DNA of 64,000 nucleotides, from assembly GCA_946613265.1 (NCBI GenBank), contig CAMOFK010000001.1:22753-86752 (forward strand), read 5' to 3'. The notes beneath the pieces were generated by a model, which was given only the letters and a program-made list of their open reading frames with translations, had not been told where the DNA came from and did no database searches. The stretch comes from an uncultured Verrucomicrobiota bacterium. GTDB taxonomy: Bacteria > Verrucomicrobiota > Kiritimatiellia > RFP12 > UBA1067. Below are positions 4,567 through 60,711 of the stretch, in pieces (the first letter of the stretch is position 1; every line of letters starts with the position of its first letter). Made by a program: the position numbers and the translations under genes.

Positions 4567-5199
4567 CTAGCGCGCCTTCAAGGCCGCGGCTTCGCTGGCG
4601 AGGCGCTCGATCGCCGCCCAGTCGCCTGCCGCCACGGCATCCTTCGGCGCGATCCACGTGCCGCCGCAGCATATTATCTCCGGCACGGCGAGATAGTCGC
4701 GGACGTTCGCGGGCTTTACGCCGCCCGTCGGCATGAATTTCACCCCCGTCCAGCGGAATGCGCCAAGCAGATCCTTTATATATTTGACTCCGCCGGCGGA
4801 TTCGGCGGGGAAAAATTTCACGAGCCGGCAGCCAAGCGAAAGCGCCTGCGAAAGTTCCGACGCCGTGGCGACGCCAGGACAGAACGGCATGCCTAGACGA
4901 TTGGCGGCTTTGACGATTTCCGGGTCGAAGCCGGGCGCGACGCACGCTTGCGCGCCGGCCGCTTTCGCGGCGCAGAGCTGTTCGAGCGTAAGCACCGTCC
5001 CTGCGATAGTCGTCGCGCCTTCGACTTCGCGGTTGATTTTCGCGATCGCCTCCGCGGCGCAGGACGTGCGGAAAGTGATTTCGAGAACTGGCAGGCCGCC
5101 TTTGACGAGCGCGCGCGCGAGCGGCACGGCTTTCTCGATGTCTTCGATCACGATGACAGGAATTATTCCCGCCGCCCCCAAAGTGTCAATCATGTCCAT
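4567..5199 (-). CDS. eda: KDPG / 4-hydroxy-2-oxoglutarate aldolase
   Basis: The internal start MDMIDTLGAAGIIPVIVIED at 5199 is preceded by AGGAGA. About 210 aa with GGLPVLEITFRT and KFFPAE..GG..Y...L...F....FMPTGGV, typical of Eda. The 117-codon upstream extension in the ORF track is Arg-rich junk. Confidence 0.9.
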   Translation of the reverse strand: MDMIDTLGAAGIIPVIVIEDIEKAVPLARALVKGGLPVLEITFRTSCAAEAIAKINREVEGATTIAGTVLTLEQLCAAKAAGAQACVAPGFDPEIVKAANRLGMPFCPGVATASELSQALSLGCRLVKFFPAESAGGVKYIKDLLGAFRWTGVKFMPTGGVKPANVRDYLAVPEIICCGGTWIAPKDAVAAGDWAAIERLASEAAALKAR

Positions 5200-5237
5200 T
5201 CCGATTTTCTCCTGTTTGCAAATCAAGCGCCGGCGCG

Positions 5238-5711
5238 TCAGAGCGCCAGCAGGTCTTCGCGTGTGAAGGCGCAAGGCGCGTTCGTCGCCGCCGGATCGGC
5301 GGCGATCTTCTCCGGCTTCGCGGCCGCCTGCGAATGCGGCAGCGGCGTGTACGGGAAATCCACGTCGCCCTGCCTGACGACGCCGCGCCGTTCGCCGATT
5401 TGCGCGACGCATCCCGTTTCGCGGGGTATTGCGCCGAGCGAAAGATCGGCGCGCAGGGCGGACATGCCGTCGCGCGCGGTTTTTATCGAGGCGCGCGCCG
5501 CCTGCACTGCGGCGTCCGCTTGCTCGTCCGGAAGCGAAATGAACGCGCACGAGGCGCGCGCGCTTTCCGCCGGGGCTTCGCGCGCCTTGAAAGCTAGCGC
5601 GGCGTACGGGAACGCCGCCGCTATGCCGAGAGGCGCGGCGAGTACGAGCGCCAGCGAGTAGATTTCGTTGCGCAGATGGCGCTTCGGCTTGTATAGATGC
5701 GTTTCCGCCAT
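5238..5711 (-). CDS. Hypothetical membrane-anchored protein downstream of exbD
   Basis: 157 aa with a single N-terminal TM (IYSLALVLAAPLGIAAAFPYAALAF). It occupies the position where TonB/TolA-like partners usually sit, but no TonB C-terminal signature is recognised. Confidence 0.45.
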   Translation of the reverse strand: MAETHLYKPKRHLRNEIYSLALVLAAPLGIAAAFPYAALAFKAREAPAESARASCAFISLPDEQADAAVQAARASIKTARDGMSALRADLSLGAIPRETGCVAQIGERRGVVRQGDVDFPYTPLPHSQAAAKPEKIAADPAATNAPCAFTREDLLAL

Positions 5712-5775
5712 GGTGGAAGGGGCGCCGGGGCCTGGCTTCGCAGAGTGCGCGAGCCGTTGCCGCCAGCCGTGGTTT

Positions 5776-6252
5776 TCAGGTTTCGTCGTGGTGGCGCTGG
5801 GCGAAGAGTATCCGCTTGATCCCGCCTGCGCGCGCCGTCGCCGCGAAATTCATCAGTTCTCCGGCGGAAACCCGCCTGTCCGCAAGCACCAGGAGAGCAT
5901 CTTCTTTCAATTTCGCGGCGCGCTCGCCGAGCTGCTCGCGAAACGCCTCCATCGATTGATCGTCGCCAAGCAGAAAACGCGCGTCGTCGAAAAACACCAG
6001 CGTCTCGCGCGAGGTCGGCAAGAGAAGCGCGACGAGCGAAGTCTGCTCGCCGTCGGCGAATTCGCGTTCCGGGAGATCGAAGAGCACGCCTTCGGCGATC
6101 GAGAGCGTGCCGCCGAGCAGATAAAGTGTCACGACCAGCATGCAGAGCGTCAGCCACGGCGCCGCGGCGACGAATGGCCGCAGCCATGCGATGTCATGGC
6201 CGCGCAGCGCGCCGGCGTCGCGCACGCTCCAGCCCCAGCCGCGCTGCGTCAT
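5776..6252 (-). CDS. exbD: Biopolymer transport protein ExbD/TolR
   Basis: 158 aa, one TM, then the ExbD-type periplasmic domain (LVLADRRVSAGELMNFAATARAGGIKRILFA). Its ATG overlaps the exbB stop (ATGA). Confidence 0.85.
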   Translation of the reverse strand: MTQRGWGWSVRDAGALRGHDIAWLRPFVAAAPWLTLCMLVVTLYLLGGTLSIAEGVLFDLPEREFADGEQTSLVALLLPTSRETLVFFDDARFLLGDDQSMEAFREQLGERAAKLKEDALLVLADRRVSAGELMNFAATARAGGIKRILFAQRHHDET

Positions 6253-6878
6253 CGCGCCTCCTCCGCGGCAGGCGCGCCTTGGCGGGCCTGCGCGCCGATG
6301 AAGCCCACGATGCTCGTGGCGGCGGCTTCAAGTTCGACGACTATTCTTTCCATGCGTATTCTCAGCGAGCCGTGCATGACCGCCAGCGGAATCGCCACCG
6401 CCAGGCCGAGCGCGGCGGGAATGAGCGCTTCCATCGCCGCATTCATCAGGGCGGTCTTTGTGGCGAGCGCCCCGGAGTTCGCGAGCATTACTGCTTTGAT
6501 CATGCCGATGAAGGCGCCGAGCAGCCCGAGGAGCGGGGCGATCTGCCCCATGATCGCGAGCGACGCAAGGCGGCGGTCGAGACGCCCGATCTCCGCGCGG
6601 CCCTGCGCATCGACGGCGTCGCGAAGGGCGCGTTCGCCGCCTTCGCGATGGCGGATGGCCGTGGCGACGACGTTGGCTACCGGCACGGCGGTGTCTTCGC
6701 AGATCGCGAGCGCTTCGTCGATATTGCCGCGCGAGAGGATGTTGACCACGCCCTTGACGAAATCCTGCCAATCGATCTGCGCCCTGCGAAGTTCGAGAAA
6801 GCGCTCGAAGAACACGACAGCCGCCGCGACCGCGAGAGCGAGAAGGATCCAGAATACGGGTCCGCCGGTTAGCGTCAT
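6249..6878 (-). CDS. exbB: MotA/TolQ/ExbB proton-channel protein
   Basis: 209 aa. Three TMs and the conserved LASLAIMGQIAPLLGLLGAFIGMI segment of ExbB/TolQ. Confidence 0.9.
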   Translation of the reverse strand: MTLTGGPVFWILLALAVAAAVVFFERFLELRRAQIDWQDFVKGVVNILSRGNIDEALAICEDTAVPVANVVATAIRHREGGERALRDAVDAQGRAEIGRLDRRLASLAIMGQIAPLLGLLGAFIGMIKAVMLANSGALATKTALMNAAMEALIPAALGLAVAIPLAVMHGSLRIRMERIVVELEAAATSIVGFIGAQARQGAPAAEEAR

Positions 6879-9055
6879 AGGAATTTTCCTTTCGTCTGAA
6901 TGCGGTCCAGCCGCTTTTCGGCTTCGTCTGCCGCGGGTACGTCGGAGGCGATGACGAGTTCGAGGATGTGCATCGCCTGGAAATCCTTGCCGCGGCTCTC
7001 GTATTCGTCGGCGAGGCGGAAGGCGGCGCGCGAAAACGCCGCGCGCGCTTCATCGTCGAAAGCGATGCCGCGGAGGCGTGCTTCGCGGTATGCGAGGACG
7101 ACGCCGGTGTAGTATTGGTCGATAGCTTCGTCGATGCGTTTGAGCTTTTCGAGCACTCTGCCCATCTTGAAGGAGATCGCAAGGCGCAGGCCCGGCGGGA
7201 GGGATTCGCCGAGGCGTAGCGCGCGGTATGCGTCGAGCGCTTCGCGGTATCTAGCGGGGTTGTCGGCGCCCATCGCGAAGAGCGCATCGGCTTTGAGGAC
7301 TTCGGCCTTGAGGCGTTCGGCGGCACCGACGCCATTCTCCATCAGCGCTCTTTCGATCACGAGAAGGGCTTCTTCGTAGCGTCCGAGTTCGACGAGCGCT
7401 TCGCCTTGCAGAGTGTATGCGGCGGCGCGTTCCGGCGCGGCCGGGTATTTCTCCACGAGTTCCGTCACTGTCCTGATCGCCTTGGGGAAATCGTTTTCGG
7501 CGAAGGCTGCGCGCGCCGCCCAGACGAGCGCGCCGGGCGCGCGTTCGGATTCCGGCGCCATTTCCGCGAATGTGAAGAAAAGCGAGCAGCTTTGCTCCCA
7601 GCGGCGGGAGTTGTAGGCGAGTTTCGCCAGCCACAACGTCGCCTCCGCCTTGACTTTCAAGTCGGATGCGTTCGCGGCGATCTTCGCGGCCATTTCCTCC
7701 GCTTCCCTGTCGAGACCCTGCGCATACATGCAGAGCGCCTGCATCAACTCGGCGCGCGCGGCGTTCTCCTGGTCTTCGGAAGCGATTTCTGCGAAAATCT
7801 TCTGCGCCTCCGCAAAGCGATAGTCGTTGTAGAGTTCGCGGCCTTGCGCTTCTAGTTCGCGGCGCTTTACGACTTTGCCGAGCTTTTCCGCGGCCGGCGA
7901 CTTCGGGAATTTCTCCAGCACGAGGCGGTATTTCGCCATTGCTTCGTCGCCCTTGCCGGATTCCGCGAGGATGTCGCCCTGCTCGAGGATGGCCATGGCT
8001 TTTTCATCGTCTCCGGACGCTACGTCTTCTGCGCGCGAAAACGCTTCGAGGGCTTCTTCGCTGCGGCCGAGTTTGCGCAGCGCCCATCCTCTCGCCTCCT
8101 GCACGGAGAAGCGGTTCTTCGCGTCCAGCCAGATTTCCAGCACGCTTTTGAAAGCATCGGCGGCTTCCGCCCACTGTTCGCGCGCGAGCAGCGCGTCGGC
8201 AAGCGCGATGGCCGCGTCCATCGCGCCTTCGGAATCGGGAGCGTCTTTGATGATGGCGCGAATGGTCTTTTCGCCTTCGTCGAACGTCGCTTTGTCTTCG
8301 AGGAGTATGCGGCCGAGCCGCAGGCCGGCGAAGCGCCGCGTCTTGGCGTCGGCGGCGTTTTCCGCGCCCGCGCGCAGCAGCGCGACGTCTGCGAGATTGG
8401 CGGCGGCGATGGCGTACGCACGTGTCGTCACGTTCGAAGGGATGGCGATTTCCCGCCAGATTTTCTCCGCCGCTGCGCGGTCACCCGAAGACGCGAGGAT
8501 GGATGCGGCCGCCATTTTCGCTTCCGTGCCGGCAGCCTCGAAACCGCTTTCGCGCACGAGCTTCAAGGCGAGCGCGCTGTCGCCTGCATCGGCGGCGAGG
8601 CGTGCGCGCAGGCGTGTCGCGAGGTCGCGGTATTCCTGCGTCTCGAAAGAGGCGGCGGCGAGCGCCGCGGAGGCTTTTTCTTTCTCGCCTTTTTCCGCGA
8701 GCGCCAGCGCGCCGTAGTAGGTGAGCATTTCCGCGGACGCCGGCTTTTCGGAAGAAGCGGCGTCTTCCGCCTGCCACGCCGCGACAGCGCCGGCGATCTC
8801 GTCCCAGGCGCCTTCTTTCGCCCAGCTTTCGAGAATGATGGCGCGCGCGGCTTCGCCGCCCGCCTTTTCGGCGTGTTCGCGCGCTACGTTCCAGAGACCG
8901 TCCCGCAGAGCTTCGCGGGCGATTTCCAGCTCGCCGCCGCGCGCGGCGGTCGCGACGATTGGCGCGGCCAGCAGGCAGACGCGCGCTGCCTGGCGCGCGC
9001 ATTCGCGCAGGCACGCGTAGTGGAAAACGCCTTTGAAAGCCGCATTGCAATTCAT
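6875..9055 (-). CDS. Large tetratricopeptide-repeat (TPR) protein co-transcribed with exbBD
   Basis: About 726 aa, Ala/Glu/Leu-rich, with many 34-aa TPR-like units (e.g. EALEAFSRAEDV, EAMAKYRLVLEKFPKSP, AIRTVTELVEKYPAAPE). The start is taken at 9055 (MNCNAAFKG, GGAG 10 nt upstream); an alternative ATG lies at 9118. The 1215-aa ORF in the track runs through era and is not real upstream of this point. Confidence 0.7.
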   Translation of the reverse strand: MNCNAAFKGVFHYACLRECARQAARVCLLAAPIVATAARGGELEIAREALRDGLWNVAREHAEKAGGEAARAIILESWAKEGAWDEIAGAVAAWQAEDAASSEKPASAEMLTYYGALALAEKGEKEKASAALAAASFETQEYRDLATRLRARLAADAGDSALALKLVRESGFEAAGTEAKMAAASILASSGDRAAAEKIWREIAIPSNVTTRAYAIAAANLADVALLRAGAENAADAKTRRFAGLRLGRILLEDKATFDEGEKTIRAIIKDAPDSEGAMDAAIALADALLAREQWAEAADAFKSVLEIWLDAKNRFSVQEARGWALRKLGRSEEALEAFSRAEDVASGDDEKAMAILEQGDILAESGKGDEAMAKYRLVLEKFPKSPAAEKLGKVVKRRELEAQGRELYNDYRFAEAQKIFAEIASEDQENAARAELMQALCMYAQGLDREAEEMAAKIAANASDLKVKAEATLWLAKLAYNSRRWEQSCSLFFTFAEMAPESERAPGALVWAARAAFAENDFPKAIRTVTELVEKYPAAPERAAAYTLQGEALVELGRYEEALLVIERALMENGVGAAERLKAEVLKADALFAMGADNPARYREALDAYRALRLGESLPPGLRLAISFKMGRVLEKLKRIDEAIDQYYTGVVLAYREARLRGIAFDDEARAAFSRAAFRLADEYESRGKDFQAMHILELVIASDVPAADEAEKRLDRIQTKGKFL

Positions 9056-9126
9056 TTTGCCCAGTCTCCGAAAGTTTTCGCCCGTGCGAGAAACATGTAT
9101 TCCGCAGGTGGACGCCATGCAGGCGT

Positions 9127-10062
9127 TTACAGGTAGCCCATTCTTGCGAGGAGTTGCTTGTTCTTCATCCAGTCCGGTTCCACGCGAACCCAGAGCTCGA
9201 GCGCGACTTTTACGTCGAAAAGCTCTTTCAATTCGCGCTCCGCAGCTTTGCGCGCTTTCTTTATTATCTCCGCGCCGCGCCCGATCACGATTGGCTTTTG
9301 GGAAGGGCGGTTGACGAGGATTTCCGCCGCTACGTCCCAGCGCTCCGGCGTTTCGCGAAGCTCCTTCACGTATATCCCCAGCTCGTGCGGGACTTCCTGG
9401 TGCAGATGGCGCAGAAACTTCTCGCGTATCGAATCGGCGATCGCCAGGCGCTTCGGGTAGTCGGTCACGATGTCCTCCGGGAACAAGCGCTCGCCTTCGT
9501 CGGCCATCTCGAACAGCGCGTCGAGGACTTCCTTCTCGCCGCCTTCGACGGTGGAGACGGCCTTCACCCAGCGCACCGTCTGCGGGCCGTCCTCCCGTCC
9601 GGCTTGTGCATCCGCATCTTCCGCTTGCGCCGGCGTCTCGGCTTTCACGCGCTCGAATTCGGCAAGGAATTCGCTTGCGCATGTCGGCTCTTTGTCCGTC
9701 TTGTTCAATACGAAGAGCACTCTGCCGGTGTGCTCGCGCACGATGCGCTGCATCCATCCGATGTCTTCGAGCTGCGGCATGACGGAGGCGTCGAAAAGCA
9801 CGCAGAGGATATCCGCGCCGGCCGCAGAGCGGCGCGCCGTCCTGTTGAGAAGCCTGCCAAGTTCGCCGACGGCCTTGTGCAATCCCGGCGTATCGAGGAG
9901 GACGAGCTGTCCGCGCGCGTCCTCCACGATCCCACGGACCATGTTTCGCGTCGTCTGCTCGACCGGGGAGACGATCGAGACCTTCTCGCCGACGAGACGG
10001 TTTACGAGCGTGGATTTGCCCGCATTCGTCCTTCCGACAACCGCTACTACAGCGCTTTTCAT
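9127..10062 (-). CDS. era: GTPase Era
   Basis: 311 aa. G1 GRTNAGKST, G3 DTPG, G4 NKTD, and a C-terminal KH domain (IVIGRGAEIIKKARKAAERELKELF). It has a roughly 25-aa acidic insertion. Confidence 0.95.
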   Translation of the reverse strand: MKSAVVAVVGRTNAGKSTLVNRLVGEKVSIVSPVEQTTRNMVRGIVEDARGQLVLLDTPGLHKAVGELGRLLNRTARRSAAGADILCVLFDASVMPQLEDIGWMQRIVREHTGRVLFVLNKTDKEPTCASEFLAEFERVKAETPAQAEDADAQAGREDGPQTVRWVKAVSTVEGGEKEVLDALFEMADEGERLFPEDIVTDYPKRLAIADSIREKFLRHLHQEVPHELGIYVKELRETPERWDVAAEILVNRPSQKPIVIGRGAEIIKKARKAAERELKELFDVKVALELWVRVEPDWMKNKQLLARMGYL

Positions 10063-10089
10063 CGCGTGACGGCCGGTGCGGGGATTTGC

Positions 10090-11769
10090 CTAGGGAACCG
10101 GGAAGCCCAGCGCGAGGGCTTTCGCTTCGCGCTTCACGCGCTCCTGGATGGAAGTGTCGGCGATGTTGTCGAGCACATCGGCGATCCACGTACCGATCTT
10201 GATCATCTCCGGCTCTTTCATTCCGCGCGTCGTGACGGATGCGGTGCCCACGCGGATGCCGCTCGTCTTGAAAGGCGATTCGGTGTCGTAGGGGATGGTG
10301 TTCTTGTTCACGACGATGCCGGCGGCGTCGAGCGCGGCCGCCGCATCCTTGCCGGTTATCCCTTTCGTCGTCTTCACATCGACGAGGAAGAGGTGGTTGT
10401 CCGTGCCTCCGGAGACGATGCGATAGCCGCGATCCTGCACCGTCTTGCAGAGGACCGCGCAGTTCTTCACTACTTGCGCGGCGTAGTCCTTCTTCTCCGG
10501 CTGCATCCATTCGCGGAAGCATACCGCCTTTGCGGCGATGATGTTTTCGAGCGGCCCGCCTTGCATGCCGGGGAAGACGGCGGAATCCAGCGCCTTCGCG
10601 TACTGCGCCTTGCAGAGGACCATGCCGCCGCGCGGCCCGCCGAGAGTTTTGTGCGTCGTGGTGGTGACGAAATCAGCGTAGGGGACGGGCGAAGGATGCG
10701 CGCCGCCCGCGACAAGCCCTGCGATGTGCGCCATGTCGACGACCATCAGGCAGCCGGCCTTGTCGCAGATTTCCCGTATTCTCTTGAAGTCGAGCGTGCG
10801 CGGATATGCGGAGGCTCCCGTCAGGAGAATCTTCGGCTTTACTTCGAGCGCCTGCGCTTCGAGGGCGTCGTAGTCGAGCATCTCCGTCTTGCGATCCACG
10901 GTGTACGGGACGATGTTGTAGATCTTGCCGGAGAAATTGACCGGGCTGCCGTGCGAAAGGTGCCCGCCCTGATCGAGCGAAAGCGAGAGGATCGTATCGC
11001 CCGGCTTGATCGTCGCGAAATACACCGCCATGTTCGCGGCGGAGCCGCAATGCGGCTGGACATTCGCGTGCTCGGCGCCGAAAAGACGGCAGGCGCGCGT
11101 GCGCGCGAGCTCCTCGGCCGCGTCCACCGGGAGGCACCCGGAGTACCACCGCTTGCCCGGATAGCCCTCGGCGTACTTGTTCATCAGCACGCTTCCGGCA
11201 GCCTCGCGGCACGCGCGGCTCGAAAAATTCTCCGACGCGATTAGGTTGATTTCCGTATCCTCCTGCTCGGTCTGCGCGACGATCGCAGCGAAAATCTCCG
11301 GGTCGGCCTTGGCGAGCCCCGATGCGTCGCTCAAGCGGCCTGCGCGCTCGTTGAGCCAGCGCCTCCTGACATGGCGCTCGCTGGCGTCCGCAGGCGTCGC
11401 GATGAATGCGGATGCGATTTCCGCCGCGTAGTCCGCGGAGACGGAATTGGCGCCGAGGCAGAGGATGTTGGCATCGTTGTGCTGGCGCGCCATGACGGCG
11501 GCGTCAACGGTGGCGCAAAGCGCCGCGCGGACATTCTGGAAGCGGTTGGCCGACATCGACATGCCCACGCCGGACGTGCAAACGAGTATCCCGAAATCGA
11601 CTTCGCCTTTCGCGACCGCAAGCGCGACGGCTCTGGCGTACTCTGGATAATCGCAGGATTCGCGCGTGTCCGTGCCTGCGTCGATCATCGTCGCCTTGGC
11701 TCCGAGCGAACTCAAAAGCACGCACTTCATGGCATACCCGCCGTGGTCTGCACCGATAGCAATCTTCAT
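10090..11769 (-). CDS. glyA: Fusion protein: ribose-5-phosphate isomerase B (RpiB/LacAB) N-terminal domain plus serine hydroxymethyltransferase
   Basis: 559 aa. Residues 1-~145 read [15 protein letters not shown]...[16 protein letters not shown]...NILCLGA (RpiB). Residues ~160-559 carry [21 protein letters not shown] and [14 protein letters not shown] (the PLP lysine motif of SHMT). The frame is open and uninterrupted. Confidence 0.9.
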
Positions 11770-11799
11770 CTTTTCTCCTTGGAGGATTTACACCCCTAT

Positions 11800-11808
11800 A
11801 TTATATCA
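11800..11808 (-). promoter_or_regulatory. Extended -10 promoter (TGATATAAT) for rpiB-glyA
   Basis: The reverse complement reads ggAAAATATGATATAATAtagg. It lies about 30 nt upstream of the ATG at 11769, which has an AAGGAGAAAAG ribosome-binding site. Confidence 0.7.
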
Positions 11809-11852
11809 TATTTTCCTTGATGCGCGGCGCCGGGCAGTCTCCTCGCGCCCGA

Positions 11853-11882
11853 TTGACGCCACGGCGTACGGAATGCTATAAT
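11853..11882 (+). promoter_or_regulatory. Sigma-70-type promoter (TTGACG, 18-nt spacer, TGCTATAAT) for the kinase gene
   Basis: The -35 TTGACG lies at 11853-11858 and the extended -10 TGCTATAAT at 11874-11882. It diverges from the rpiB-glyA promoter. Confidence 0.7.
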
Positions 11883-11939
11883 ATGCGCAGACTTGATCCT
11901 GCAAACCCTTGTGTATTCCGCAAAAGGCTTGTCGATGCG

Positions 11940-14900
11940 ATGGATTTTGAAGACAGCGAGTTTCTAACGCCCGGCGAAACGTTCGGGAGTTTTGTCGTGG
12001 AGCGGCTCCTCGGCAAAGGCGGCATGGGGAGAGTCTATCTCATGACCGAGCGCTCCACTGGCCGGAAATATGCCGTCAAAGTGATGAAGCCGCCGGACGG
12101 CCCGACGAGGCATGCATGGAGAAAGCGCTTTGCCAACGAGGCCGCATTCGCGAAGAAGGTGCATCACCGCAATCTCGTCCGCGTGCATGACATAGGCGAA
12201 GATCCCGAGACGCAGCTCTGCTATATAATAATGGATTACATGCCTGGCGGGACACTCGCGGATTTGCTCAAGCGGCAAGGCCGCCTTGGGATCGCGGACG
12301 CCACGGCCATCGCCATACAGGTTGCAGAGGGACTGGCGGCGGCGCATGACGCCGGAATAATCCATCGCGATGTAAAACCCGACAACGTAATGTTCGATGC
12401 CGGCGGCGTCGTGCATGTCGTGGATCTCGGCGTGGCCAAGCCGACGGCGTCGGCAGGCGCCGAAACGATAACGCAGACTGGGATGATCGTCGGCACGCCC
12501 GCCTATATGGCGCCGGAGCAGATAATCGATTCCCGCAGGGTGGATGTGCGCTCGGATATCTATTCTCTCGGAATATTGCTTTTCGAGATGCTGACCGGCA
12601 CGAGGCCGTACGCGAAGCTTTCGATGCTCGAGATGCTCGCCAAGGCGATAGACGGCGAGGCGATCTGCGATGTCCGCCAATATCGCAAAAGCGTGCCTTC
12701 CGGACTCGCGCATGCGATAGCGAAGTTCTGCGCGCCGTCATTGGACGAACGCGTGCAGACGGCGCACGAGGCGGCGCGGATGCTCAAAGCGACGCTGGAT
12801 CGTCCCCGGCGCGCGAAGCGGTTGCAGCAGGCGTTGTGCATAGGCGCGACGGCACTGATCGTCGCAGGCAGCATTGCGACGATCCTCTTTTCGCGCAGCT
12901 CTGGGGGCATTGAGGAGGGCGCGCTCCGCGAGGCCGTGGCTGGCGGCAGGACGTGGCGCTATCGCGTCGAGAACGGCGAAGCGGTGCTTAGCTGCGCGGA
13001 GAGCGTCGGCGGCACGCTGGCTTGCGTATCCGGTGCGCCTGCGGGAGAGCTAGAGATTCCCGCGAGCCTTGACGGCTTGCGCGTGGCGGCGATAGGCGAA
13101 CGCGCGTTTTCCGGCTCGTCCGGAGGGGGCGTGTTTTCGCGGGTGTCGATTCCCGAGGGCTTGCGGGAGATTCACGGCTGCGCATTCATAGATTGCTCCG
13201 CGCTGGAAGAAGTGAAACTGCCCTCGAGCGTGCGGAAGGTCGGCGCGCGCGCATTCGCTGCATGCCTATCGCTGCGGCGCTTCAATGCCGCGATGTGCGA
13301 AAGCATCGACGGCTCCGCTTTCATAGATTGCCCGCAGCTTGCCGAAATCCAAGTCGATGACGCCAACAGTGCGTTTGCGGCGCGCGATGGCGCGCTCTAT
13401 ACTAAAGATTGCAGCAAGCTTGTCGCATTCCCGAAGACGCGCGAGGCGGGCGGCTTGCGCTTCGCGCGATCGCTCGAGCGAATCGGCGCTTCGGCATTCG
13501 CGTCATGTTGCTTCGAGGCGTTGCGGCTGCCTGCAGGCGTGGCGGCGATCGAGAAAGGTGCGTTCCGCAACTGCCGGCGTCTTGCATTGCTTGAACTTCC
13601 CGACGGAGTGAGAGAGTTGCAAGATGATATTTTCGATGGCTGCGAAAGCCTCGTCAAGCTCGTCTTCGACGGCGATGCACCCGCGGATGCCGCCCCTGGC
13701 GTCTTCAACGGCGCCCCCGAGACGCTGGTTATCGAGGTCGGGGAAAATGCAAAGGGCTGGGGCGGCGGGCAGGCGTTTTCGCAATTCTGGCCGGCGGATG
13801 GATATAGCGACGGTCAAAGCGGGGCGCACGCGCCGGCGGGGCGCAGAGTGCGCCGCACCGGCGAAAAGAAAGACTCCGGAGATGTGCGCGCGGCGCGCGG
13901 CGGCGCGATCCCCGCGCCTGTGCGCCTCGAGGCTGAAGGCCGCGTCTGGATGTGCCGTGAAGCGCGCGCTGGGGAGCGCGACAGGCTGGTGCTGATGGAT
14001 GTCGAGCCTGCGCCGGCCGATGGATTTGCCATTCCCGCTGCGATAGGCGGAAGGCGGATCGAGGTCGTGGAGGGCGCGCTTTTCGCGCGTTGCGCAAGAG
14101 TGACGCGATTGTCGCTTGGCGAAGGAATAGCGGCGATCCATGGCGCGGCGGCGTTCGGGGCCTGCAAGGAACTTGAGACGGTCGAGCTGCCGGCCAGCAT
14201 GAGAAAGTTGGGCGAGCGCGCTTTCGCGGGATGCGAAAAGCTCAAAGAGATTCGCGTAGCCGGCGGAAGCGGGGCTTTCAAATCTTTCGGAGGATTGTTG
14301 TACAGCGGCGATGGCACGCGCCTCGTGGCATGCCCTGCCTCGCGCGACGAAATCACTCTCGAAAAAGGAGTCGCGAAAATCGAGCCTGGCGCGTTTGCCG
14401 GTTGCCGCTGCCGGAGCATTTCTTTCGGTGAAGGCGTCTGCGACGTAGGCGCGGGGGCGTTCGAGGACTGCCGCTTGCTTCGCCGGCTAGAGTTTCCCGC
14501 GGTGCTGCGAAGTCTGGGCGAGCGGGCTTTCAAGGGTTGCACGGCGCTGGAAACAATTCGCTTCAACGGCGATGCGCCCGAATGCGGCCCCGAGGTTCTG
14601 GCGGGATGCGCGAGCACGGTAATCGTCGAAGTTATGCCTGGTTCGAAAGGCTGGATGGGCGCGGCGATCCACCGCGGAGACGCAGCGCGAATCGCGCTTC
14701 CCGATTACTGGCCGGAGAATGCAGGAGAACATTCGCGCGAAATCCGCTTGGTTGGCGAGAGCGCGGAAAACGCAGCGCTTCGCCGCGGCACGGCGTTTCT
14801 CAGAAGCGGCATGCAGCGCGGCGTCCGCGAGGCATACGACGGCATGTCCGCGTGGTTTTACAAGCCGCAGGAAGCGAAAGCCTCCGGGCCGGCGTGTTCG

Positions 14901-56694: not shown

Positions 56695-57048
56695 ATGAGA
56701 ATCAAGGCCACCAAAACGAACGCGGCTCAGGTGGTCGTCTCCAAGAAGACGACTCCCACCGCCGCGAAGAAGGCAAGAAAGACCGAAACTCGCGAGGTCG
56801 TTTTCACTGTTCATGCCGAACGCGGCAAGAACGTGTTCGTCGCCGGCGAGTTCAACAACTGGGATCCTACGGCAAAGAAGATGGCTTTCAAGGTCAGGGA
56901 AGGCATCTACACCGCTTCCATGAAGCTCGCCCCCGGCGACTACCAGTACAAGTTCGTCATCGACGGAACCTGGTGCGCGGATCCGGAGAATGTGAACTCC
57001 GTCGCCAACGACCAGGGCACCTTCAACTCCGTCATCACGGTCAAGTAA
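56695..57048 (+). CDS. Small CBM48 / AMPK-beta-type glycogen-binding-domain protein
   Basis: 117 aa. VFVAGEFNNWDP....M......G.Y...M.L.PG.YQYKFVIDG.W..DP is the canonical CBM48 pattern. Confidence 0.8.
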   Translation: MRIKATKTNAAQVVVSKKTTPTAAKKARKTETREVVFTVHAERGKNVFVAGEFNNWDPTAKKMAFKVREGIYTASMKLAPGDYQYKFVIDGTWCADPENVNSVANDQGTFNSVITVK

Positions 57049-57064
57049 TCGTGGCGCGCGCCGC

Positions 57065-57090
57065 GCGCATGTTTGCCATGCGCTCGTTTT
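57065..57090 (+). terminator. Rho-independent terminator of the CBM48 gene
   Basis: GCGCATG-tttgc-CATGCGC followed by TCGTTTT, 17 nt after the stop. Confidence 0.7.
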
Positions 57091-57220
57091 GCGCCCCTCT
57101 ATAGGTGGTTCTCCACTCGCAAAGCGGCACTGAACGGCCTTGATGGTTGTCCAGTGTCGTTTGCTATTGTTTTTGCGCCCCTTCGTGCAAAAACTCTACA
57201 CTTCAGAATCCGACGCTCCC

Positions 57221-57240
57221 CCCGGCAAAGCCGGGTTTTG
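57221..57240 (+). terminator. Second terminator-like hairpin
   Basis: CCCGGC-aaa-GCCGGG followed by TTTTG. With the first terminator it brackets about 130 nt of sequence with no convincing ORF. Confidence 0.5.
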
Positions 57241-57286
57241 TACCCCGCAGGATCGGCCACGTTCGCGACTTTTGTCGTATGCTCTG

Positions 57287-57432
57287 GCGACTGGAGTCGC
57301 CCGTGCTGGCGACCCTAGTCGCCTTTGCAAGCGACTGGAGTCGCCTTTGCAAGCGACTAGAGTCGCTTTGGCTCGCGACTGGAGTCGCCTTCGCAAGCGA
57401 CTAGAGTCGCCTTCGCTCGCGACTGGAGTCGC
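57287..57432. repeat. Array B: seven 22-bp-phased units, each a 14-bp palindrome GCGACT-GG-AGTCGC (variants) plus an 8-bp spacer
   Basis: Palindromes start at 57287, 57309, 57331, 57353, 57375, 57397 and 57419, a period of exactly 22. Spacers are ccgtgctg, ctttgcaa, ctttgcaa, tttggctc, cttcgcaa and cttcgctc. Confidence 0.95.
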
Positions 57433-57517
57433 CCCGGCGCGCAACCCACATCAGGAGGGACGCGCTCCCGCGCGTCCACCGGCCGCGCCGGAGCGCGTTC
57501 CTCCGCCGTTCGTGCGG

Positions 57518-58240
57518 TGGTGTAGCGCAAAGCCCCGAATGGGGCGACATATATATAGCCGGGGGTGGAGCATGCGAAGCATGCGGAACCCCCGGTATCG
57601 GCGCAAAAGTGAATCGAACCCCGAAGGGGTGGCACAATGGGTGTTCCGATGGCGTCGGAATAATTGTGCCACCCCTTCGGGGTTTGTGCGTTCTTCGAAC
57701 GCATTCCGGGGGTTGCGCGCGCGTTGCGCGCTCCACCCCCGGCTATATATGTGTCGCCCCTTCGGGGCTTTGCGGGCGTGCGATGGTGTAGCGCAAAGCC
57801 CCGAATGGGGCTTTTTTCGGTCGCGCGATGGTGTAGCGCAAAGCCCCGAATGGGGCTTTTCTCGGTCGCGCGGTGGTGTAGCGCAAAGCCCCGAATGGGG
57901 CGACACATAAATAGCCGGGGGTGGAGCATGCGAAGCATGCGGAACCCCCGGAACAAGCACGAAAGTAAATCGAACCCCGAAGGGGTGGCACAATGGGTCA
58001 CAGCGGGTGTTTCAACATCGTCGGAGCAATTGTGCCACCCCTTCGGGGTTCGATTCAATATTGCGCCTATTCCGGGGGTTGCGCGGGCTTCGCCCGCTCA
58101 CCCCCGGCTATAAATGTGCCGCCCCTTCGGGGCTTGTTTCAATATTGCGCCGATACCGGGGGGGGTGGAGCATACGAAGCATGCGGAACCCCCGGAACAA
58201 GCGCGAAAGTAAAACGAACCCCGAAGGGGTGGCACAATGC
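57518..58240. repeat. Five copies of a roughly 100-125-nt composite hairpin element in alternating orientation, plus a 45-bp triplication of its 5' module
   Basis: E1 57518-57640 (+), E2 57661-57780 (-), E3 57872-57997 (+), E4 58028-58135 (-), E5 58141-58238 (+, 5'-truncated). Shared modules are GTAGCGCAAAGCCCCGAATGGGGC, CCGGGGGTGGA[hairpin]GGAACCCCCGG and CGAACCCCGAAGGGGTGGCACAAT. Confidence 0.9.
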
Positions 58241-58270
58241 CGTGAAGGGCGATAGCTGCCCCGGGGCGCT

Positions 58271-59209
58271 TCAGACGCGATAGCCGGCGCGGCGTGCGAG
58301 TTCGCGATCATCGGCGAAAATCGCGCCTGGCGTGGTGAGAAGAGCGCCGGCTATCCCTGCGGATATGCCGACATAGATGCACTTTTCGGCTGTTTCGTCG
58401 GACATGTCTCTGCGGCCGCCCGCGAAGCGCAAATGGGTCGCGGGGTTGACAAGGCGCAGAAGGGCGATGGAATCGACCACTCGTTCTGGATCGAGAATGG
58501 GTCGAGCGCCGAGCGGCGTGCCTTCTATAGGATGAAGGACGTTGACGGGGATGGAGTCCGGCGCAATCTCCTTGAGCGTGAAAGCGAATTCGACGAGCTG
58601 TTCGTCCGTCTCGCCCATGCCGATGATGCCGCCGCAGCAGATTTCCAGGCCGAGGCGGCGGGCGGCGCGAAGCGTCGCGAGCTTGTCGGCGATAGTGTGC
58701 GTAGAGCAAAGGCGCGGGAAGAGCGATGGCGCGGTCTCGATATTGCAATGCACTCTCGACAACCCGGCGGCTTTGAGTTTGGCGAGGTCGTCTTCGGAGA
58801 GGAGCCCGAGAGACGCGCAGAGAGAGATGGAGCCATGCTCGCGCATCTTGCGCAGCGCGGCGCACACATTCTCGATTTCGCCGGGAGAGAGCGTGCGGCC
58901 GGATGTGACGATGCCGATGCGCCGCACGCCGTTGGCCTCGGCATCGGCGGCGGCGCGCGCGCATTCGTCTTCGCCGATCCAGCCATGTGCGGCGCAAGAG
59001 GTTTTCCAGTGCGCGGATTGCGCGCACCATTTGCAATCCTCGGTGCAGCGCCCGCAGCGGGCGTTGATTATCGAACAAAAGTCGAAAGTCTTTTCCACGC
59101 ACGCGAGCGTGACGGCGTGGGCGCGCTCGCGCAGTTCGGCGCGGCGCTCCGGCGCCAGCAGCGCCAGCGCTTCTTCGCGCGTTATTCCTTCTGCATCTGT
59201 TTTCCGCAT
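58271..59209 (-). CDS. bioB: Biotin synthase (radical SAM)
   Basis: Start MRKTDAEGITREEAL at 59209. Radical-SAM cluster motif CGRCTEDCKWCAQS, then HCNIET and CCGGIIGMGET. Confidence 0.9.
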   Translation of the reverse strand: MRKTDAEGITREEALALLAPERRAELRERAHAVTLACVEKTFDFCSIINARCGRCTEDCKWCAQSAHWKTSCAAHGWIGEDECARAAADAEANGVRRIGIVTSGRTLSPGEIENVCAALRKMREHGSISLCASLGLLSEDDLAKLKAAGLSRVHCNIETAPSLFPRLCSTHTIADKLATLRAARRLGLEICCGGIIGMGETDEQLVEFAFTLKEIAPDSIPVNVLHPIEGTPLGARPILDPERVVDSIALLRLVNPATHLRFAGGRRDMSDETAEKCIYVGISAGIAGALLTTPGAIFADDRELARRAGYRV

Positions 59210-59229
59210 ATTCGTGGTGCTGTTCCGGG

Positions 59230-60711
59230 CTAGGCGTTTCTGTTTTCGAGCGCCTTGGCGGCGCGATGGAAGATTTCGCGATTCTTTTCGATGAGCTGCG
59301 GCTTCTTTTTGAAGGACGCGCAAAGCGCTTCTTCGAGCGAAGCATCCGCAAGACCCGTCGCCTTGCAAACCTTCAGCGCGGCGAGCATCATCGTATTCGC
59401 GGCTTTCGGGACGCCGAATTCCTCCGCCATCGCGATCGCCGGCACGCGGCGCAGGCGCACGCCTTCCGGCGGCTCCTTCGCGACAGGCACGGTTTCATCT
59501 ACTATCACGAGACCGCCTGGCTTGACATCTGCGGCGAAGCGCTCGTACGAGGGCTGGTTCATGCAGACGAGGACGTCGGGATGCTCCACCGAGGGCGCGC
59601 CTATGCGCTGCGGGCTTACCACGACTGAGCAGGAGGCAGAGCCGCCGCGCTGCTCCGGACCGTACGACGGGAACCAAAGCGTGTGCAGATTCTCGAGGCG
59701 CGCGGCTTCCGCCACGCAAAGCCCGAGCGAGAGAATTCCCTGACCGCCATAGCCCGCGAATTTGAAGCGCAGTTCCTTGGAAAGCCGCGCCATGCCGGCG
59801 CCGCGCTCCGGCGCTCCATCGGCGGCTTGCGCGCCGGCGGAAGCGCTGAAGAGCTCTGCGCAGGAATTGAAGCGCGGCACTGGGCGCACGGCGAGTGCGG
59901 AGCCTTGCGCGGGCGCCGCCGCGCTTTCTTCGCCGCCGGCTTGCGCGGAACGGTCGCGAAAAACGCCGAGCGGGAATTCGCGCTCCATTTCGTCGATGCA
60001 GAAGCGCGCGGCCTTCTGCGCGTCCATCCTGAAATTCGTTGGGCACGGCGCGAGGATTTCCAGCATCGCGTAGCCTTTGCCGTCGCGCTGAAGCTCGAAG
60101 ACTTTGCGGATCGCGGCCTTCGCCTGCATGATGCGTTTAGTGTCTGCCACGGAGACGCGCGCGATGTAGAAGGGCGCCTGAAGCTGGTTGAAAACTTCGC
60201 AGACGTGCAGAGGGTGGCCGGTCAGCGCGGGATCGCGCCCGTAGGGAGTGGTCGTCGTCGTTTCGCCTTCGAGCGTGGTGGGCGCCATCTGCCCGCCGGT
60301 CATGCCGTAGAGCGAGTTGTTGATGAATATGCAGCCGAAGCGCTCGCCGCGCGATGCCGCCTGGAAGGCGTTGTTGAAGCCGATCGCGCCGAGATCGCCG
60401 TCGCCCTGGTAGGCGATGGTCACGGCGCCGGGGCGCGCGCGCGCCACGCCCGTGGCGGCGGCGGATGCGCGGCCGTGCGCCGCCGAAATGTGCGCGGCGT
60501 CCCAATAATAATAGGTGAACACGCCGCAGCCGACGGGATCGACGAATATCGTGCGGTCCTGCAAGCCGAGTTCGGCGCAGGCCTCCGCAACGAGCTTGTT
60601 GACGATTCCATGGCCGCATCCGGGGCAATAGTGGGTCGTGCGCGCGTGCGGCTTGCCGCAGCGCGGAAACTCCCGGTACATTCCTTTCTGCTCGATGGTT
60701 TTCATTCTCAA
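59230..60711 (-). CDS. korB: 2-oxoacid:ferredoxin oxidoreductase, fused beta (TPP-binding) and gamma subunits
   Basis: 493 aa. The N-terminal 270 aa carry CPGCGHG and the TPP motif YQGDGDLGAIGFN...INNSLYGMTGGQ. After a low-complexity linker, the C-terminal roughly 190 aa read FAGYGGQGILSLG...FPSYGPEQRGG (gamma subunit). Confidence 0.85.
   Translation of the reverse strand: MRMKTIEQKGMYREFPRCGKPHARTTHYCPGCGHGIVNKLVAEACAELGLQDRTIFVDPVGCGVFTYYYWDAAHISAAHGRASAAATGVARARPGAVTIAYQGDGDLGAIGFNNAFQAASRGERFGCIFINNSLYGMTGGQMAPTTLEGETTTTTPYGRDPALTGHPLHVCEVFNQLQAPFYIARVSVADTKRIMQAKAAIRKVFELQRDGKGYAMLEILAPCPTNFRMDAQKAARFCIDEMEREFPLGVFRDRSAQAGGEESAAAPAQGSALAVRPVPRFNSCAELFSASAGAQAADGAPERGAGMARLSKELRFKFAGYGGQGILSLGLCVAEAARLENLHTLWFPSYGPEQRGGSASCSVVVSPQRIGAPSVEHPDVLVCMNQPSYERFAADVKPGGLVIVDETVPVAKEPPEGVRLRRVPAIAMAEEFGVPKAANTMMLAALKVCKATGLADASLEEALCASFKKKPQLIEKNREIFHRAAKALENRNA

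Follow-up and report, generated by a model that had tools for sequence, protein, structure and literature searches.

A gene-free island in a Kiritimatiellia genome as a probable BIME-like mosaic of repeats related to Acido-Lenti-1

A 64,000-nt stretch of DNA (the window) from an uncultured Verrucomicrobiota bacterium of the Kiritimatiellia contains a gap of 1,222 bp at positions 57049-58270, flanked by the convergent genes for a CBM48-domain protein (left) and bioB (right). The window corresponds to positions 22753-86752 of contig C1 of the metagenome-assembled genome (MAG) G000 (2.23 Mb, 103 contigs, 62% G+C, approximately 82% complete), and coordinates given below without a contig or locus name are window positions. 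The best explanation for this island, to which we assign a probability of roughly 0.78, is a mosaic of non-coding repeats that resembles bacterial interspersed mosaic elements (BIMEs) and accumulated in an insertion-tolerant gap between convergent genes. From left to right the island would consist of (i) a single-copy, structured 3' tail of the CBM48 transcript that carries two terminator-like hairpins, (ii) one array of a 22-bp phased-palindrome family of this genome, (iii) a junction hairpin derived from two inverted copies of a short dispersed motif and (iv) two complete foldbacks (approximately 245-250 nt each), a block amplified locally to 3 x 45 nt and one half element, which are all members of a repeat family that is termed E here.

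Repeat content of the CBM48-bioB gap

The island was compared with the rest of the genome by BLAST to obtain a map of repeat depth. Both edges (57049-57255 and 58245-58270) are unique. The region 57260-57440 is multi-copy with a depth of up to approximately 186 aligned segments, 57445-57505 has a low copy number and 57510-58240 is multi-copy with a depth of approximately 90 segments, both strands counted. Dispersed repeats make up approximately 75% of the gap and unique sequence amounts to 244 nt. The minimum free energy (MFE) of 57263-58245 is -665.8 kcal/mol vs -434.7 +/- 9.4 kcal/mol for dinucleotide shuffles (z = -24.6), and 74% of the bases are paired in the MFE structure of the whole gap. 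The seven longest open reading frames (ORFs) of the gap have no Pfam match and none of these seven was selected by a codon-usage gene caller trained on G000. This custom caller, on which all gene calls and gene contexts reported here depend, is crude; genome-wide it classifies 85% of the gaps as co-directional, 8% as convergent and 7% as divergent. The original prediction, made from the nucleotide sequence alone, had described the gap as strongly self-complementary and free of credible ORFs, and both statements hold. The features listed in it (two terminators, an array of palindromes termed B, a hairpin with a 15-bp stem and the elements E1-E5) were all recovered at their positions. It had also pointed to identical peptides encoded on both strands, which is correct for CATPSGF; HPRLYMCRP occurs once, on the plus strand, and RGFALHHR four times, on the minus strand only. 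The gap is long, as had been remarked, but it is not unique in this respect, as approximately 50 gaps of at least 1.2 kb exist by the crude calls, some of them being missed genes.

Array B (57265-57434) consists of one degenerate unit and, after it, the 14-bp palindrome GCGACTNNAGTCGC in seven units with an exact period of 22 bp; the tandem core (57287-57433) comprises 6.7 copies of this period. The palindrome family forms approximately 50 arrays of 3-10 units in the genome, in which 216 of 237 spacings are exactly 22 bp. Palindromes are kept while spacers drift, both between loci and between strains, and strains of the species differ in the number of array units (7, 8 or approximately 5) as well as in the spacers. 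All interior arrays are intergenic and 10/33 are found in convergent gaps, compared with 8% of all gaps (p = 0.0003, by the crude caller). The exact two-unit palindrome pattern was detected in none of the 30 relatives searched. Eight arrays (C3:29680, C7:39023, C12:42329, C15:21893, C17:5430, C28:28385, C58:11751 and C63:369) are embedded in a larger repeat of approximately 450 nt, with approximately 80 nt conserved upstream and 200 nt downstream of the array. The downstream part contains AAAGGAGGTGAAAATCGTG, a strong Shine-Dalgarno sequence and GTG at the start of a short conserved frame. Array B resembles iteron- or operator-like phased arrays in its short palindromes, fixed two-turn spacing and drifting spacers. 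It differs from them in that approximately 50 arrays are dispersed over the chromosome and that a replication gene accompanies none of these. CRISPR arrays have repeats of 24-48 bp and unique spacers of similar size, whereas array B has a 22-bp period, 8-nt spacers and relatives at approximately 50 loci.

Array B is followed by a junction segment (57435-57506) that contains the 15-bp-stem hairpin, in which 57454-57468 pairs with 57490-57504. This hairpin is composed of two inverted copies of the motif GGGAGGGACGCGCTCCCGCGCG, of which approximately 15 copies or half-copies are present in the genome at the edges of arrays and E clusters. The segment 57284-57684, comprising the array, the junction and the first E arm, is colinear with a locus on C2 (83% identity); the two loci agree in their palindromes but not in their spacers, and the junction hairpin carries one compensatory change from G-C to A-T. 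In two strains (L044 and L046) a different sequence takes the place of the junction segment.

The E family and its relation to Acido-Lenti-1

The E family is represented in G000 by approximately 106 units in 33 clusters, which are up to 1.4 kb long and add up to 13.6 kb. As 20 of the 33 clusters lie at contig ends, assemblies break at this family and the real number of copies exceeds this count; repeat counts in MAGs are lower bounds. The unit U of approximately 111 nt contains three hairpins and is arranged as S, an AT-rich linker, B, a second linker and a second S, with CCCC-GAA(G/T)-GGGG as the S hairpin and CCGGGGG-TGGAGC-(inner stem)-GGAA-CCCCCGG as the B hairpin. Units are found in 24 complete head-to-head foldbacks of 237-253 nt, arranged round a TGGCACAAT/ATTGTGCCA centre, and also head-to-tail with a period of 84 nt and a shared S hairpin. 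The outer stems of U are invariant across 80 copies. The inner B stem exists in three compensated versions (GCATGC/GCATGC, GCGCGC/GCGCGC and GCGGGC/GCCCGC) and is paired in 76-79 of the 80 copies.

Five E units are present in the gap. Units 1 (57529-57639, plus strand) and 2 (57663-57771, minus strand) are joined head-to-head round a TGGCACAAT/ATTGTGCCA centre to give the E1 foldback (57529-57771), which has a GTAG leader at 57507-57528. Units 3 (57885-57995, plus strand) and 4 (58029-58135, minus strand) form the E2 foldback (57885-58135). Unit 5 (58161-58239, plus strand) is a half element that lacks the first S hairpin and has no inverted partner. A local tandem of three 45-nt copies of the GTAG-plus-S-hairpin module (GGTGTAGCGCAAAGCCCCGAATGGGGCTTTTTT) covers 57769-57903 on the plus strand with 94% matches; copies 1 and 2 have the shape of intrinsic terminators and the hairpin of copy 3 runs into E2 and has no T-run. 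S hairpins with a T-run score as terminator-like. Both plus-strand arms carry the GCATGC inner stem, and the minus-strand arm of E2 has GCGGGC/GCCCGC where that of E1 has GCGCGC/GCGCGC. The best match of E1 elsewhere in the genome (C3:474-716) is 93.8% identical and that of E2 (C62:9170-9421) 96.0%, while E1 and E2 are only 83% identical to each other. Judged by these identities, E1 and E2 are separate arrivals, and local amplification is limited to the 3 x 45-nt block. All interior E clusters are intergenic. Both flanking genes were called for ten of them; again according to the crude caller, the gap is convergent in four of these ten cases, whereas 8% of all gaps belong to this class (p = 0.006), and divergent in none.

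A scan of the gap with Rfam gave no family at or above threshold. The two matches of Acido-Lenti-1 (RF01687) in the window, at 57739-57769 (19.8 bits) and 58094-58134 (19.3 bits), stay well below its gathering score of 37. The whole genome contains 36 such sub-threshold matches (15-28.6 bits), almost all of them within clusters of the E family. In the alignment, GGCUAuAUAUGUGUCGCCCCUUCGGGGCU of the E unit is placed against GGCUAauuUAUgcCGUgCCUUCGGcACU, and the order of the parts and most of the conserved letters are shared. E units contain the two-hairpin core of Acido-Lenti-1 with the linker GGCUA..UAU..CG and a second hairpin of the C(UUCG)G type. A covariance model of 117 positions, R1, was built from 22 units of G000 and two units of G085, a genome of another genus. 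R1 matches bona fide Acido-Lenti-1 elements over positions 1-117, with 53.1 bits (E = 3e-11) at locus L189 of genome G023 and further full-length matches of 48 bits (L181) and 40.6 bits (L185); E-values for the three loci range from 3e-11 to 3e-8. As these loci carry RF01687 matches near or above the gathering score (approximately 37-45 bits), homology is found in both directions. L189 (G023:C8:54400-56000) is a multi-kb Acido-Lenti-1 cluster with a tandem period of 153 nt in a genome of the same order and represents an analogous island. R1 also matches a locus on a viral contig with 30 bits. This contig (L157, IMGVR_UViG_2861697045_000001) is a 23-kb viral or proviral sequence of unknown host with 63% G+C, and carries five B-type hairpins CCGGGGGTGNAGC...GAACCCCCGG at 5012-12245, at least one of them as part of a complete S-B-S unit. 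RF01687 was at or above threshold in 8/151 genomes sampled from the phylum, with up to 33 copies per genome at E <= 0.001.

Acido-Lenti-1 was classed by Weinberg et al. 2010 (PMC2864571) as a likely RNA whose role is unknown. Like the E unit, it has a hairpin closed by CC...GG, a linker of GGCUA, an AU-rich stretch and CG, and a hairpin with a UUCG loop that is followed by CU; like the E units, it is present in multiple copies and tandem clusters in Verrucomicrobiota genomes. The B hairpin of the E unit differs from it by its enlargement to a 7-bp outer stem that encloses a covarying inner stem of 6 bp. Of the approximately 111 nt of a unit in the E family, the Rfam model accounts for 46 nt only, and the head-to-head foldbacks and contig-breaking clusters of the E family are absent from this model and from the accessible part of the description of Acido-Lenti-1 (PMC2864571). 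On the basis of sequence and predicted structure, the E unit belongs, as a divergent member whose B hairpin is enlarged, to a superfamily that has Acido-Lenti-1 as its 46-nt core.

Several other leads on the E family were followed and rejected. A tRNA origin had been suggested by the GGTGTAGCGC-like leader; ARAGORN found no tRNA and Rfam gave no tRNA match. The GG-GC spacing in the TGGCACAAT centre is, by eye, wrong for a Sigma-54 promoter, and the microRNA matches in Rfam are generic artefacts of long hairpins. A scan of GTDB contigs for exact 20-mers yielded five matches, of which the one in Pontiella (L053) is ordinary non-repeat sequence and the other four, which were not read, were taken to be chance. 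Plasmid and phage records gave no match to sequence related to E units.

Comparison with known repeats and with related genomes

Tagged repetitive extragenic palindromes (REPs) are located mostly between unidirectional or convergent ORFs and are also known from the Planctomycetes-Verrucomicrobia-Chlamydiae (PVC) superphylum (PMC3733652). REPs, BIMEs and REP doublets forming hairpins (REPINs) share with E units the form of GC-rich extragenic palindromes with inverted dimers that fold into larger hairpins (PMC3733652, PMC3116915, PMC2817692), and with the E family the mosaic clusters with other motifs, the location downstream of genes and the restriction to species or lineages. The 24 head-to-head pairs and the clusters of the E family are of the REP/REPIN type, and so is its extragenic location without divergent gaps (0/10, by the crude gene caller). 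By this analogy, the habits of the E family (head-to-head pairs, tandem runs, intergenic location and preference for the 3' side of genes) match those of tagged REPs (PMC3733652). The sizes do not agree, as REP units have 20-40 nt and E units 84-117 nt with three hairpins. GTAG is the commonest leader of the terminal S hairpin (17/41; others are GGAA, CGAA and similar), and GTAGCGNAAAGCCCC is present in 25 copies with a tag-to-stem distance of three nucleotides. Unlike a REP tag, GTAG is not universal in E units and is found on one arm of a pair only. In REP systems the cognate REP-associated tyrosine transposase (RAYT) is flanked by repeats, and none was found for the E family in the 82%-complete MAG. 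Miniature inverted-repeat transposable elements have terminal inverted repeats with a target-site duplication and a related autonomous insertion sequence; the E element is a foldback over its whole length. Pneumococcal BOX elements are made up of the modules boxA, boxB and boxC, of which boxB, 45 nt long, forms tandem repeats. They are similar to E in having separable hairpin modules, one of which is amplified in tandem (here three copies of 45 nt), and in being intergenic and likely transcribed (PMC3049150); the two are not related in sequence, belong to different phyla and differ in their modules.

By this comparison, E units would be non-autonomous hairpin elements that spread as REPs and REPINs do, and they may be mobilised by an HUH/Y1 enzyme that recognises hairpins in single-stranded DNA. 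The repeats would be retained on the 3' side of genes, as they interrupt nothing at such positions. The GC-rich UUCG/GAA hairpins of the repeats, together with their T-runs, could act as terminators or 3'-end stabilisers, and one of them is located 40 nt past bioB. The island itself would have no locus-specific function.

Several observations weigh against the view of the island as a pile-up of mobile repeats. No mobilising enzyme has been demonstrated, and PF01797 gave nothing above cut-off in this 82%-complete MAG. The RAYT-like ORF C59:96-1415 (minus strand, 439 aa, locus L052) scores 35.6 bits with the NCBIfam model NF047646 ('REP-associated tyrosine transposase') at a cut-off of 80. It has an N-terminal HUH/Y1 transposase-like domain with the HUH (MPDHVHFII) and Y (NYLRDNP) motifs and a C-terminal part of approximately 250 aa without assignment. 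Its assembled surroundings contain no flanking E unit, and the contig ends 95 nt downstream. The multi-copy family of this ORF was found in 122/201 genomes of the taxonomic family, with or without E units, and not in G085, and no repeats flank the four orthologues inspected. A link to E by co-occurrence was rejected on the grounds of this distribution, and the weak score, the wide spread, the lack of a match in G085 and the unflanked orthologues leave this ORF with little weight. Neither a target-site duplication nor an empty site was found for E copies, most of which abut other units, and no two E copies are more than 96% identical, which argues against recent activity. The three types of inner stem could possibly have arisen by the copying of a few master subtypes and not by selection on each copy. 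Six of the 50 arrays adjoin an E cluster, and approximately four would be expected if both were merely confined to intergenic regions. A composite mobile unit of array and E cluster was rejected for want of a clear excess, and these adjacencies do not establish a functional link between the two.

A gene shared by the surroundings of E clusters in G000 and G085 was also considered as mobiliser and rejected, as approximately 0.5 coincidences of this kind are expected by chance. The gene in question, the only neighbour that the two genomes share, encodes a 289-aa protein, which by eye resembles an EamA/DMT-like multi-pass membrane transporter; its orthologues (G000:C3:1270-2136 and L149 in G085:C29) each adjoin a cluster of U units, probably by chance.

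E units have a patchy distribution. Among 301 genomes of the order, the exact B-hairpin pattern was found in G000 and G085 only, and in none of 109 other genomes of the same genus; one extra single match was obtained in 400 genomes of the phylum. R1 matched 13/141 genomes of the family and 1/36 other genomes of the genus, with many matches in G000, G085 and G115. This pattern fits the lineage-specific expansion of a mobile or selfish element and not a conserved housekeeping RNA. The gap itself varies among relatives. In the genomes with the nearest CBM48 homologues (81% identity), a convergent gene follows after approximately 130 nt and a single ordinary terminator lies between the two genes, so that the repeats of the gap are insertions relative to these kin. 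The CBM48 gene and bioB were never neighbours, whether judged from bioB in 18 genomes of the genus or from the CBM48 gene at 80 metagenome loci, and no empty site could be reconstructed. The short gap in relatives and the lack of this adjacency indicate a species-specific junction that is filled with repeats. Even the two closest relatives do not share the order of genes after the CBM48 gene, and the repeat gap coincides with a synteny breakpoint. After the CBM48 homologue of one relative (L078, approximately 1540-1640), tandem repeats of the octamer GTTGAAAR are present in inverted blocks.

Gap edges, rival explanations and meaning

The CBM48-domain protein of 117 aa is encoded at 56695-57048 on the plus strand. 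The stop codon is directly followed by a strongly structured segment (57049-57262, plus strand; fold z = -4.75) that is single-copy in the genome, near-invariant across seven contigs of the same species and most likely the 3' untranslated region of the CBM48 gene. It contains the terminator-like hairpin of this gene (57065-57090, hairpin 57065-57083), with GCGCATG-TTTGC-CATGCGC followed by TCGTTTT, and a second terminator-like hairpin (57221-57240, hairpin 57221-57235), with CCCGGC-AAA-GCCGGG followed by TTTT. Three strain substitutions in the hairpin GTTTTTGCGC...GCGCAAAAAC (57169-57195) retain pairing only through G-U wobble on the plus strand, which hints at constraint on the CBM48 3' tail at the RNA level. 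On the other side of the gap, bioB (58271-59209/59368, minus strand) has its stop codon at 58271 and is conserved from M54 of the long ORF. A unique 30-nt spacer (58241-58270) before this stop codon is 100% identical in an independent MAG contig, and the S hairpin at 58218-58230, read on the minus strand as ACCCC-UUCG-GGGU followed by UCGUUUU, is terminator-like and located 40 nt past the stop codon.

The density of stem-loops had originally been ascribed to a hotspot for the insertion of structured repeats, to a large structured RNA locus or to a specialised chromosomal site. The first of these is favoured by the multi-copy zones, by foldbacks that are closer to remote copies than to each other and by the gap of approximately 130 nt in relatives. 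A functional non-coding RNA is improbable, be it a single large structured RNA or, at a minimum, a small RNA that stems from 57091-57240 and stops at the second terminator-like hairpin. The very stable folding of both the repeats and the unique part, the good terminator at 57221-57235, the plus-strand pairing retained in the 57169-57195 hairpin and the rating of Acido-Lenti-1 as a likely RNA by Weinberg et al. (PMC2864571) speak for it. However, all structured parts past 57262 are multi-copy, dispersed in the genome and present in both orientations, which speaks against an RNA gene specific to this locus, and no Rfam family reaches threshold. The gap contains no promoter-like site, including in the small RNA candidate. 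No homologue of 57091-57240 was present after the CBM48 gene at the 16 relatives' loci inspected, several of which have one terminator-like hairpin only. Slightly less probable again is a specialised site for protein loading or a domain boundary with the 22-bp palindromes as docking sites. Although their exact period equals two helical turns and the palindromes are kept while spacers drift between loci and strains, approximately 50 similar arrays are scattered over the genome together with 33 E clusters, so that there is nothing special about this locus. The two-unit palindrome pattern is missing from the relatives searched, no binding protein has been identified and the eight arrays inside the 450-nt repeat point to mobile DNA. 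It is nevertheless conceivable that the 22-bp arrays bind a protein throughout the genome.

There is only a slim chance that the join between CBM48 and bioB is an assembly artefact, with a contig joined across repeats that are nearly identical and an island that exists in no cell. The contigs of seven other assemblies of this species break off within the array or E1, 277-677 nt past the CBM48 gene; the two flanks lie on separate contigs in an independent MAG, and no relative has the adjacency. The other assemblies of the species confirm 57049-57728 and 58114-58270, and 57729-58113 is supported by the present assembly alone. On the other hand, repeat copies differ by at least 4%, so that unique k-mers exist, and the breaks fall in assemblies of low coverage (3.5-4.7x, from contig names). 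All seven assemblies agree almost completely in sequence up to 57300, and both flanks are confirmed into the repeats, on the left by L046, which reaches 57728, and on the right by L051, a contig of the independent MAG that matches 58114-59309 at 100%. As the origin of the gap, decay of a former protein-coding gene is hardly credible. Long ORFs exist on both strands, but none has a Pfam match, the unique sequence amounts to just 244 nt and the ORFs are translations of repeats, which is why the same peptides recur.

A mosaic of accumulated repeats remains the preferred reading, and for the window it removes a false lead, as the island is not a gene that had been overlooked, nor a one-of-a-kind chromosomal device. 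It is an ordinary kind of pile-up, similar to REPs and BIMEs, whose building blocks were undescribed for this lineage. A more far-reaching idea, against which we consider the odds to be clear, is that Acido-Lenti-1, an orphan of Rfam since 2010, might not be a free-standing small RNA at all; it could be the conserved core of a REPIN-like mobile element of approximately 100-117 nt with three hairpins in Verrucomicrobiota, which would burst in single lineages and be moved by widespread HUH/Y1 fusion proteins, with its pile-ups serving as multi-terminator insulators between genes. The fragmentation of these Kiritimatiellae MAGs is explained by the E clusters at contig ends (20/33), and repeat-filled gaps are flagged as sites at which gene order differs between relatives. 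The abundant orphan Rfam motif Acido-Lenti-1 is tied to a concrete anatomy of a three-hairpin unit, foldbacks, tandem runs and patchy expansion. This anatomy is the signature of selfish or domesticated repeats of the REP/REPIN type and suggests ways to test Acido-Lenti-1.

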